Assembly: GCF_018350175.1 (NCBI RefSeq)
Contig: NC_058379.1
Coordinates: 89,156,001 to 89,220,000, forward strand
DNA length: 64,000 bases
Direction of reading: 5' to 3'
DNA from: Felis catus
Lineage: Eukaryota
How positions within the stretch are numbered: the stretch's first letter is position 1; each line of letters starts with the position of its first letter. A model generated the notes under the pieces. The model saw only the letters and a list, made by a program, of their open reading frames with translations. It was not told where the DNA came from and ran no database searches. Made by a program: the position numbers and the translations under genes. Shown piece after piece: positions 5,506-57,643 of this stretch.

Positions 5506-5728
5506 GGGGCGCCTGGGTGGCGCAGTCGGTTAAGCGTCCAACTTCAGCCAGGTCACGATCTCGCGGTCGGTGGGTTCGAGCCCCGCGTCAGGCTCTGGGC
5601 TGATGGCTCAGAGCCTGGAGCCTGTTTCCGATTCTGTGTCTCCCTCTCTCTCTGCCCCTCCCCCGTTCATGCTCTGTCTCTCTCTGTCCCAAAAATAAAT
5701 AAAAACGTTGAAAAAAAAAATTTTTTTT
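5506..5728 (+). mobile_element. Young felid CanSINE (SINEC_Fc-like)
   Basis: GGGGCGCCTGGGTGGCGCAGTCGGTTAAGCG…GGTTCGAGCCC (Pol III A and B boxes); CpGs intact; TSD TAAAAATATTTTCAG at 5492-5506 and 5729-5743. Confidence 0.97.
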
Positions 5729-5751
5729 TAAAAATATTTTCAGTTTCTGAA

Positions 5752-13199: not shown

Positions 13200-13418
13200 G
13201 GGGCGCCTGGGTGGCACAGTTGGTTAAGCGTCCGACTTCAGCCAGGTCACGATCTTGCGGTCCGTGAGTTCGAGCCCTGTGTCGGGCTCTGGGCTGATGG
13301 CTCAGAGCCTGGAGCCTGTTTCCGATTCTGTGTCTCCCTCTCTCTCTGCCCCTCCCCCGTTCATGCTCTGTCTCTCTCTGTCCCAAAAATAAATAAACGT
13401 TGAAAAAAAATTAAAAAA
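13200..13418 (+). mobile_element. Young felid CanSINE (SINEC_Fc-like)
   Basis: Full-length body; TSD AAAACTGCATACAA at 13186-13199 and 13419-13432. Confidence 0.97.
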
Positions 13419-13486
13419 AAAACTGCATACAATTCCAGTTATTCAGTACTGAGAAGTATACTCGCATCTTAAGAAATGACCATGTC

Positions 13487-16907: not shown

Positions 16908-17835
16908 TTGTCCCAAATATTGCTTCCATATAATTATTACCCAAACACACATAGCTTCAAAGAGAGGCAATACAAAAGCATATTTGATTGGTTTATCTGC
17001 AGGGAATATGACTTCAAAATCCCCAGGTGTATCTCCATTGAGGTGAGATTCTTTACGTTCTTATACTCTATAGAATAAATGATGCTGTAACCACTTCAAA
17101 CACACATGGTAAATAATGGTAGGAGGAAAGTGGTATAAATGTAATAAAATTTCCAACATAAAGAAAGGGGGAAAGGAAAGCACCATATATTGTTTTCCAG
17201 ATCATAGTATATTGGGTTCTGTGCTAAACAAGCTAATCTCATGCACATTTATTTATTAACTTCCTTGATGTCTTGGTTATCCAATCCGCCGACTCCAGGT
17301 GGTAAACTTGAGAAAGATTTTTCATGTTCAATTACATTCAGAGTGACCCTTAGGAGAGGCAGTATGATCACGCCTTAGTCTGTTTCTTTTGGAAGAAGCT
17401 ACTTGGCAATAGGGCCTCCAGTAGAGTCCAAGAAATCAGGGGACATTGTTCCAGAGCCTTGAAGATTTTCTGAGAAAACAACTCCTTAGTTTGGCTGTTT
17501 GTTAACAGCATCTGTGAGGACTCTAAGTATTACCACTAATGAAAGAAGTCTTATTAAAACATTCTTGGAGCACAGTCCTAGCTATGGTGCTGGTTTCCTA
17601 GCAAATTCTTCCTTTCTTCTTGCTTTCCACTTGAAAACCTTGGTCTCAGGAAATGGATGGAAACAATGTTAGACATGGTCAGGTTTTCTAGCAAGAGGAG
17701 TATAGTGACACCTGTGGTGTGGAGGCAATGGCCCCAAGATTTCTCTAGTTACTGCTAATAACATTTGCTCCATGTCTTAGATTCTTATATTTCTTAATCT
17801 TAAAGCAAATTTTGTTTTAAGAATGGAGGGCTCCA

Positions 17836-18118
17836 GGGGCGCCTGGGTGGCACAGTCGGTTAAGCGTCCGACTTCAGCCAGGTCACGATCTCGCGGTCCG
17901 TGAGTTCGAGCCCCGCGTCAGGCTCTGGGCTGATGGCTCAGAGCCTGGAGCCTGTTTCCGATTCTGTGTCTCCCTCTCTCTCTGCCCCTCCCCCGTTCAT
18001 GCTCTGTCTCTCTCTGTCCCCAAAATAAAAATAAACGTTGAAAAAAAAAATAAATTGTCAGAAAATAATTTTGCCATCTCTGAGCCTTTCTGTTTACATT
18101 AAAAAAAAAAAAAAAAAA
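17836..18118 (+). mobile_element. Young felid CanSINE with 50 bp of extra 3' sequence and a second poly(A)
   Basis: Body 17836-18040, A10 at 18041-18050, unique sequence 18051-18100, A20 at 18101-18120; TSD AAGAATGGAGGGCTCCAG at 17819-17836 and 18119-18136. Confidence 0.95.
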
Positions 18119-19359
18119 AAGAATGGAGGGCTCCAGAAAATCCATATTCTGCAGATAAACAAGATGCATGATTGTACATAACCAAATTGCCCAAGGACCC
18201 TCATGTTCGGGAGAATAGGCAAAATTCCCTTAATTGATTAACAATTTATTCGGCATCTTGGATTGGATTTTGTCTGTCATTAATAACACCTTACCAAGTG
18301 ATGTAAGCTGCAGCCAACACACTGATATTTTCACATTTTAGTTTTTAGTTGACCATGGCTTCAGTTTGTGTAGATTTGTAATCTGCCTAAAGAGAATAGG
18401 AAAGAAATGAATCAACCTTTTCACCACATACTAACACGCTCCACCCTCCCATCTTAGGATGGCAAGATGTTTTTTTTTATCATAACCTACCCCAACTTGA
18501 ATTAATCAGAGCCACATTTGTCGAAGGAGCTAATCTTTCAACCCAGAGCAGGATATGGATGATAATGCCAGATGACAAGTGGGAACTCCAGCTCTACCTT
18601 TTCATCTTGGGCAGATAACCTACCTATGCACAGTCACCTCCTTGGTAAACTCTAGATAATAATAATATCTGCTTGTACTATTGTCATGAGAATTAATGTA
18701 GTTAATGTACATAGAGTCCCTGCTGTATAGTAATTGCTATAAGATTTAGCCTCTACCCCCTGACTGAGATTCTGGTACAGTGGTAGCATGAAGGACAATC
18801 TCACCTCTTCTGTGTGACCTCCCTTCATGTTTGGAGACTGCTGTCATGTAACCCGCCCCCCCCCCCCCCCCGCCGAGTCTTTTCTTCTGCAAGCACAGCA
18901 CCCATGGTCTTCCAACGGATCCTCAAGTGGCATGGCCCTGAGACCTAATCTGAGTTAGTCTGTTGCTGCTCATGTCTGTACTTTGTAAATCAACTTTGAA
19001 GTACAGCTTGATGCAATGTGAAAATTACAGAGCTGGATAAAATCATTAGCTTACCACTTCATCTTAAAATGCTATTGCATAACTATGTATTTCATAAGTT
19101 GAAATGGAAATACTCTAGAGAATTAGTTGAGGAAATGTTGGCTAGTGGCGAAGGCAGAGAACTGGGTCCGGACTCAGCCTTTTAAATTCAGACACTGAAT
19201 TTACCAGGTGTATGACCTTGGGCAATTTGCTCATGTAGAAAATGAGAGGACGATAAACTCCATTGTTACTTCAAAAATGTAAATAGGGAAAATACCATCT
19301 TTCCTTCACAATTGCTGAAAAGATTCAAGGCAGCATACCTCTCTTCCTTAACTCATCAC

Positions 19360-29872: not shown

Positions 29873-30001
29873 NNNNNNNNNNNNNNNNNNNNNNNNNNNN
29901 NNNNNNNNNNNNNNNNNNNNNNNNNNNNNNNNNNNNNNNNNNNNNNNNNNNNNNNNNNNNNNNNNNNNNNNNNNNNNNNNNNNNNNNNNNNNNNNNNNNN
30001 N
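29873..30001. other. Assembly gap (N run)
   Basis: 129 N. Confidence 1.
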
Positions 30002-54911: not shown

Positions 54912-55078
54912 NNNNNNNNNNNNNNNNNNNNNNNNNNNNNNNNNNNNNNNNNNNNNNNNNNNNNNNNNNNNNNNNNNNNNNNNNNNNNNNNNNNNNNNNN
55001 NNNNNNNNNNNNNNNNNNNNNNNNNNNNNNNNNNNNNNNNNNNNNNNNNNNNNNNNNNNNNNNNNNNNNNNNNNNNNN
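54912..55078. other. Assembly gap (N run)
   Basis: 167 N. Confidence 1.
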
Positions 55079-56600: not shown

Positions 56601-57420
56601 ATAATTCTAGACCGTGCTGAAATTATGCCTTGTATTTCCCCAAAATAGAAAGTTTCTTAATCTTTAGACAATCACAGGGAGGAGAATTTGTAGATAAATG
56701 AGAGAAGAAGGCTTTCACCCCTCTGAGGAGTGCACGGCACGTTTGCCTTTGAGTTCACACGGTTGTTGAAGGTGAGTGTCTTAGGTAATTCTCGTTTCAC
56801 TGCAGGGTTTCGTCCCCTCAGTCAAGACGTTTCATTTCTGCTGACGCTACTTATGGGCAAATGCTTTAATCTGTTATCAGCACTTGGCGGATATTGTTCC
56901 CCTTAAATGCTTAAATTGCACTTATTCTGTACAAGTGATGGATTTTGAATGTTGGCATATTGGCTATTAAGCAAGAATCTATAATTTCTAACAAAAGAAG
57001 GTAAAGGCCAGTTAATTGCAGACTACATAACCCAGCAACAACTTCCTTTACACGGAGTTGAGATTTCAGAGTTTAAATGGAATTTAGTATTCTATGGAAA
57101 GTGGCATTCTCAAGGTGACTGGAATTTTCTCTATACATACAATCCCTCTCTATTTTTTTCTATTACAGATCAAAGATCATGATGGATTCTTTGTCCCTGA
57201 AGGCACATCCCCGGTCCAGACATTAGCCATCCTAACCCCGGATCACATCAGCACCTTCTGTGCTACAAATCACCCCCTCACTTCCGTGGTTTTTATCACT
57301 GCGAAGTCCCGCCTCTTTAGTTTTGCAGTTGAACATGTCACTCGACTTTAAAACCGATGACCCATTTCCGTGACAAATCTTATCTAAACCTACTTAGATT
57401 TTGTTCACACCAATGCCATT

Positions 57421-57643
57421 TTTTTTTAATTTTTTTTTCAACGTTTATTTATTTTTTTGCGACAGAGAGAGACAGAGCATGAACGAGGGAGGGGCAGAGA
57501 GAGAGGGAGACACAGAATCGGAAACAGGCTCCAGGCTCTGAGCCATCAGCCCAGAGCCTGACGTGGGGCTCGAACTCCCGGACCGCGAGATCGTGACCTG
57601 GCTGAAGTCGGACGCTTAACCGACTGCGCCACCCAGGCGCCCC
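57421..57643 (-). mobile_element. Young felid CanSINE (SINEC_Fc-like)
   Basis: Near-identical to the copies at 5506, 13200 and 17836; TSD CCAATG(C/T)CATTTT. Confidence 0.97.

Follow-up and report, generated by a model that had tools for sequence, protein, structure and literature searches.

Transduction of 3′ flanking sequence is standard for LINE-1 and SVA elements. In the window, by which we mean the whole 64,000-nucleotide stretch of cat DNA analysed here, a young CanSINE is followed by 50 nt that are foreign to the SINE, and the locus raises the question of whether a tRNA-derived SINE has carried its own downstream flank to a new site and, if so, from which parent and by what route.

Architecture of the tagged SINE

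The first-pass annotation had described a CanSINE, an A10 run, a foreign 50-mer (hereafter, the tag) and an A20 run enclosed by one 18-bp target-site duplication (TSD), and all of these parts were recovered exactly where it had placed them. The unit consists of the following features:

17819..17836, + strand: 5′ copy of the TSD, 18 bp; an exact 18-mer at a TTTT/AA L1-endonuclease-type site
17836..18040, + strand: CanSINE body, full-length, young, felid; from sequence comparison and diagnostic motifs
17848..17859, + strand: Pol III A box; from comparison with the consensus
17902..17912, + strand: Pol III B box; likewise from comparison with the consensus
17963..18021, + strand: TC-rich polypyrimidine tract, seen in the sequence; polyadenylation-helper role from PMC9599045
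18022..18040, + strand: tail variant with a pair of AATAAA signals (18024-18029 and 18030-18035); from alignment of three copies
18041..18050, + strand: A10 without an internal T-run terminator, copied from the genomic A-tail of the parent, which is also A10
18051..18066, + strand: tag part 1, 16 nt, the parent's own 3′ TSD copy; from alignment to contig C2
18067..18100, + strand: tag part 2, 34 nt of unique parental flank; from alignment to contig C2
18101..18120, + strand: terminal poly(A), A20; untemplated at the parent, where TGCCAG continues
18119..18136, + strand: 3′ copy of the TSD, 18 bp; exact 18-mer

The TSD 18-mer occurs exactly twice in the window (17819-17836 and 18119-18136); the last G of its 5′ copy doubles as the first G of the SINE, and its 3′ copy begins with two As that also close the A20. 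A single TSD encloses the SINE, the 50-nt foreign segment and the terminal poly(A), which is the arrangement by which 3′ transduction is recognised. As had been noted, the tag is missing from the three closest sister copies in the window, which are 96-97% identical to the tagged copy. These sisters (5507-5740, 57410-57642 and 13201-13430) have T2, T2 and T9 runs, respectively, in their A-tails, a signature known from T+ amplification of Can SINEs in dog and seen here in a felid subfamily. In the tagged SINE, AATAAA signals and a polypyrimidine helper tract are both present, as is characteristic of T+ SINEs. The AATAAA to which the annotation had drawn attention (18049-18054) exists, but it is not the only one, the SINE already having the pair listed above. 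The T4 run reported within the 50-mer was confirmed at 18069-18072; it is part of tag part 2 and the point at which a second daughter, described below, ends, while the last base of tag part 2 itself is the second T in a T3 of the parent.

By its sequence, the window SINE fits subfamily II, subtype IIB/SINEC_Fc1-like. Subtype IIB has been defined by a GGCTCGG motif, a T>G change in the A box and a one-base indel near position 51 (PMC4084570). The A-box G is present, and the indel near position 51 is matched loosely, other copies having an extra T after 17878; the GGCTCGG motif is found in the parent and the second daughter and as a CpG-type variant in the window copy. The A box of the window copy has one CpG-type change relative to the parent, at body position 17. 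A tRNA-Lys origin has been described for the Can SINE (PMC9599045); an Rfam search of our sequence returned no match at E≤1, and the A and B boxes are visible in the sequence. Two stretches of N in the window (29873-30001 and 54912-55078) lie far off and have no bearing on the element.

The parental locus and a second daughter

A 60-nt tag query was searched against the window's own 2.43-Gb genome and gave two matches, the window itself and one with E=1.1e-19. The latter (G000:C2:33905327-33905381, minus strand) is identical over the tag at 50 of 50 positions and is not a chance match. There the tag stands directly behind the A10 of a SINE (L003; G000:C2:33905377-33905591, minus strand) that differs from the window SINE at 4 positions in 215 nt, two of the differences being CpG transitions. 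The first 16 nt of the tag are this SINE's own 16-bp TSD, the same 16-mer being found directly upstream of it, the other 34 nt belong to ordinary flanking DNA, with no terminal poly(A) following. The annotation had named such a locus, with the 50-mer directly 3′ of a SINE A-tail and continuing as ordinary flank, as the observation that would support transduction. A match to an mRNA or L1 3′ end with no adjacent SINE, which it had set against its proposal, did not occur. A template-switch chimera with an mRNA or L1 3′ end was rejected, since a SINE precedes the tag, whose first bases are the TSD of that SINE.

Similarity between the window and C2 ends at SINE +1 and at tag position 50, beyond which the flanks are unrelated, and the pair is therefore not a segmental duplication. 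The nested TSDs give the direction from C2 to the window, because the parental TSD lies inside the daughter and is followed by a new poly(A) and a new TSD; likewise, the C2 copy is taken as the parent because it has its own 16-bp TSD and lacks a terminal poly(A). Judged from these sequence relationships, the window element almost certainly arose from the C2 locus by retrotransposition. About 30 bases upstream of the parent is an older CanSINE in head-to-head orientation (L002, about 1785-1950, G000:C2), and the surrounding region is dense in SINEs, with 14 SINE matches in 10 kb.

Additionally, a 24-nt pattern with up to one mismatch was scanned over the genome and yielded three matches, namely the parent, the window and C21:13802192, while the reversed-pattern control yielded 0. 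The further daughter that the annotation had envisaged is thus in place, with part of the same tag: the C21 copy (L004) has the same SINE, an A-run, the first 20 nt of the tag, an A22 and a 10-bp TSD, with two extra T at its 5′ junction. In a paralogue of its L1-like host repeat, the repeat is continuous across the insertion with a 9-nt overlap, so that the paralogous L1 represents the empty site. The 3′ tail variant is common to the parent and both daughters and was found in 0 of 48 random young copies. The window copy has three private sites, and at all of them the C21 copy agrees with the parent; from these sequences it is more simply a sister of the window copy, and descent as a granddaughter via the window copy is disfavoured by the same three sites.

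Two body positions depart from a simple pattern. At position 105, the state of the window copy is the common one (37/48) and that of the parent and the C21 copy is rarer (10/48), which fits CpG decay but also conversion or template switching. At position 140, both daughters have the common base and the parent a near-private one (1/48), which implies that the parental allele changed later or that the sequenced allele differs from that of the donor. Two daughters is a minimum count, as those with a tag shorter than 18 nt or primed within the A10 escape detection.

The insertion was also examined among 24 sequencing runs, all from one species, by comparison of contig sets from two different studies. 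In both sets, single contigs span from 17300 through the 5′ junction to 17858. No empty allele was seen in the two sets among the 15 of 413 joints listed, with 18091-18132 excluded as repeat. Given that an empty allele would be expected to break contigs at 17836, the insertion is probably homozygous in both samples. Raw reads of runs X20 and X24 cover the flanks at ~1x. The annotation had spoken of an identifiable, active source element; the source is indeed identifiable in the C2 parent, but the description as active was not borne out, with copies 4-5 substitutions apart and no empty allele in two samples. Because of these parent-daughter substitutions and the lack of an empty allele in the two other samples, the retroposition events are probably not brand new.

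Route from the parent to the tagged copies

The 5′ ends of the two daughters coincide with SINE +1. Their 3′ ends fall on the second T of a parental T-run, the C21 copy ending in the T4 at tag positions 19-22 and the window copy in the T3 at tag positions 49-51. The parental T-runs are shortened in the daughters from T4 to T2 (C21) and from T3 to T2 (window), and the terminal A-runs that follow (A22 and A20, respectively) are untemplated by the parent. Positions within runs of at least three T account for 12 of the first 70 flank positions, and the chance that both ends fall at such positions is ~0.03-0.06 by a post hoc hand calculation. The C21 end lies 16 nt past an AATAAA and the window end 46 nt past the last AATAAA. 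The terminator at the 3′ end of the C21 copy is a T4, while that of the window daughter is a T3, a minor terminator; the window daughter passed the T4 and two other T3 runs, and its end falls 12-15 nt short of the next T4.

These ends can be set beside published work on related SINEs. In B2 constructs, a T4 stops ~65% of transcripts, mostly at the second to fourth T, and a T3 is a minor terminator (PMC8466645). Read-through Pol III transcripts of mouse B2 are polyadenylated up to ~60 nt from the signal, the spacing in mRNA being 10-40 nt, with an efficiency that drops with distance (PMC12101331); the 46 nt of the window end thus exceed the mRNA range and fall inside that of B2. For dog Can, AATAAA and the TC tract are reported to direct polyadenylation of the transcripts, retrotransposition is said to need a tail exceeding A20, and terminators within the TSD have been proposed to seed new Can copies (PMC9599045).

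Based on the end positions, we consider it likely that the full route ran from Pol III read-through to polyadenylation and L1-mediated insertion. Pol III would read through the terminator-less A10 tail of the parent and stop in a T-run downstream; after termination, the read-through RNA would acquire its poly(A) through an AAUAAA-dependent reaction, and the re-tailed RNA would be inserted by L1 ORF2p through target priming. The T4 would be leaky, with some RNAs released there, as for the C21 daughter, and others passing it, as for the window daughter, although 3′ trimming or another route to the T3 end of the latter is possible. The A10 of the parent would probably be too short for priming, leaving re-tailed read-through RNAs as the productive substrate, and we propose that this is why the parent's offspring carry tags. 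The family has the T+ signature, a run of at least two T being present inside the A-tail of 27/43 young TSD-bearing copies, and the parent has none.

It is unlikely that the transduction, though real, arose instead from a Pol II transcript (of a host gene or lncRNA, or read-through from an upstream L1) that was cleaved close to the AATAAA of the SINE and 5′-truncated in reverse transcription to give an orphan-type or processed fragment. The 16-nt distance between AATAAA and the C21 end is normal Pol II spacing, the parent lies in a SINE-dense region, and a 73-bp fragment that resembles an L1 3′ end is found ~8.5 kb upstream on the same strand. However, both daughters begin at SINE +1 without upstream flank (apart from the two extra T of C21), which random truncation would rarely produce twice, both ends lie in T-runs, and the last AATAAA lies 46 nt before the window end. 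Nor was a long L1 found within 10 kb upstream of the parent, where only SINEs and the 73-bp fragment occur, or a Pfam-recognisable exon nearby: a Pfam search, which is insensitive to host exons, gave nothing above curated cut-offs over 194 ORFs in 20 kb. Three weak Pfam matches, all below these cut-offs, were rejected as chance. The parent may be intronic, and a source L1 may be missing from the assembly.

Accepting Pol III read-through, the tail could have come from surveillance trimming and oligoadenylation, or from a template switch of the reverse transcriptase to a poly(A) RNA, and we regard either as very unlikely. The position of the window end, in a weak T3 with a T4 not far downstream, would suit such an origin, as would the fall of polyadenylation efficiency with distance (PMC12101331), but the family has the AATAAA and TC tract that drive polyadenylation of dog Can (PMC9599045), and the C21 end is exactly at the expected T4 termination site. 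At the DNA level, ectopic gene conversion or repair synthesis might have transferred 50 nt of the C2 locus to the tail of a SINE already in place. Both tags end in ATT, a possible microhomology with the common A-TT-A tail, and at positions 105 and 140 the base of the window copy is the common one; against this, two independent events from the same donor would be needed among very many near-identical copies, and the tail variant is shared by all three copies while missing from the 48 others, which makes this explanation most improbable. An assembly artefact that joined two SINE loci via a repeat has a negligible probability. While the 3′ junction region (18091-18132) was masked as repeat in the contig comparison, the unit is bounded by a perfect TSD, the parent lacks the poly(A), the second daughter is independent and has a different end, and contigs from two studies are unbroken across the 5′ junction.

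Frequency of tags and relation to known systems

The frequency of tags was surveyed in 138 evenly spaced 10-kb stretches (1.38 Mb) from contigs C2, C21 and C27. In these, 97 copies are close to full length with an identity of at least 85%; after removal of 2 that lay at edges, 48 count as young (at least 94%), of which 43 have a TSD. Long tags are uncommon: a complex one was found in 0/43 young TSD-bearing copies in the 1.38 Mb, which gives an upper bound of ~7%. Four young tails with at least two G/C were, by eye, end duplications or A-tail variants. A short-tag pattern with TT before the A-run had 155 matches, and the same pattern with two G/C bases had 23. Under a strict rule, the tag was inside the TSD at 10 of the first 30 TT loci versus 5/23 G/C loci, which extrapolates to roughly 50 TT versus 5 G/C cases, the TT figure being inflated by mutated ordinary A-TT-A tails. 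A looser rule gave 19/50 loci, 20 of the 50 having been hand-picked for complexity.

A search for the parents of four short tags found a plausible parent for one (L066), so that the case for generality is weak. The 11-nt tag of this locus (L066/L198, G000:C1:7330374) equals the TSD of another SINE (L199, G000:C13:95311984) plus one T, and although the two bodies have ~7 differences, the sequences make a second parent-daughter pair possible. The tag of L183 has 7 matches, none a convincing parent, and those of L176 and L180 match only themselves in the genome. In two pairs of distant young SINEs, L071 (C1:121411637) with L085 (C2:140015863) and L073 (C1:133441885) with L191 (C18:108591159), an identical 8-nt tag separates the A-run from the terminal poly(A), and the partners possibly are siblings from unlocated parents. 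Other tails had different structures. At nine loci (L070, L078, L081, L091, L093, L177, L178, L192 and L193), young SINEs lie inside the AATAAA/A-tail of older SINEs. Loci L081, L082 and L087-L089 seem to show a single insertion of this kind, multiplied either by segmental duplication or through redundancy in the assembly. At L010:2190, L142:3991, L144:1414, L181 and L215, the A-run contains a second copy of part of the 3′ end of the SINE itself, which suggests slippage or re-priming during reverse transcription.

The trio resembles LINE-1 and SVA transduction in that an element, its downstream flank and a new poly(A) are enclosed in one TSD, and in that the tag identifies the parent, one parent having several tagged daughters. 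In contrast with those systems, the flank was carried by a tRNA-derived SINE of the Pol III type, the ends coincide with T-runs and not with a Pol II cleavage site, and the tags are only 20-50 nt long. The phrase "SINE-mediated transduction" is reportedly used in one preprint (10.1101/150482). Closest to our case are the dog Can T+ SINEs (Kosushkin et al. 2022, PMC9599045), which belong to the same SINE family; there, too, a copy that lacks a terminator makes use of a T-run where it ends, and daughters have a shorter T-run and a longer A-tail than the parent. In that study, however, parents are inferred from body identity and capture ends within the TSD, whereas here capture extends 4 and 34 nt past the TSD into unique flank and a single parent is unambiguous; the word "transduction" is absent from its main text, and its supplementary tribe alignments could hold similar copies. 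Mouse B2 transcripts of category C (Borodulina et al. 2025, PMC12101331), which make up 12-15% of reads in samples, similarly read through to a flank terminator up to ~60 nt away and are polyadenylated, and so are just the kind of RNA that our model requires, but at the RNA level only: the main text describes no genomic daughter and contains 0 occurrences of "daughter" or "transduc".

The same question has been asked of a Pol III SINE in a survey of AluY (Halabian et al., bioRxiv 10.1101/2024.04.29.591526), in which 0 transductions were confirmed among 118,489 copies with a filter of >70 nt, and which cites as earlier cases an Alu monomer with a short transduction and AluSx-WaluSat. By virtue of this filter, the survey would miss both tags described here. 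As a T-minus SINE, Alu relies on its genomic A-tail for priming, and the trio suggests why Alu has almost no transductions while T+ SINEs might. The transduction screens described in dog studies are for LINE-1 (PMC12458276, PMC13103737, PMC13756887). The trio also suggests that existing screens, restricted to >70 nt or to LINE-1, would miss such tags. A parent-resolved 3′ transduction by a tRNA-derived SINE was not found in the literature searched (including PMC6466679 and PMC11240701), which comprised main texts without supplements and few subscription journals. Within these searches, the genomic parent-daughter set appears new, while the prediction of the T+ model and the RNA-level intermediate in mouse were known.

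Which of many near-identical SINE copies act as sources is a long-standing question, as bodies alone cannot assign parents. The window copy is separated from the nearest random copy by 3 differences and from its true parent by 4; it is the flank tag that settles parentage. We claim no effect of the element on host gene function. The trio is a genomic record of the T+ model, with a terminator-less A10 parent and daughters that have 20-22 As after different flank T-runs. More generally, we put forward, tentatively and with slightly less than even confidence, that T+ SINEs transduce short 3′ flanks regularly as a by-product of Pol III read-through, unlike Alu, and that the trio is the first fully resolved example. 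If this is true, cat genomes would contain tens to hundreds of flank-tagged copies that map SINE sources locus by locus, and the tags would record the Pol III termination sites used in the germ line.
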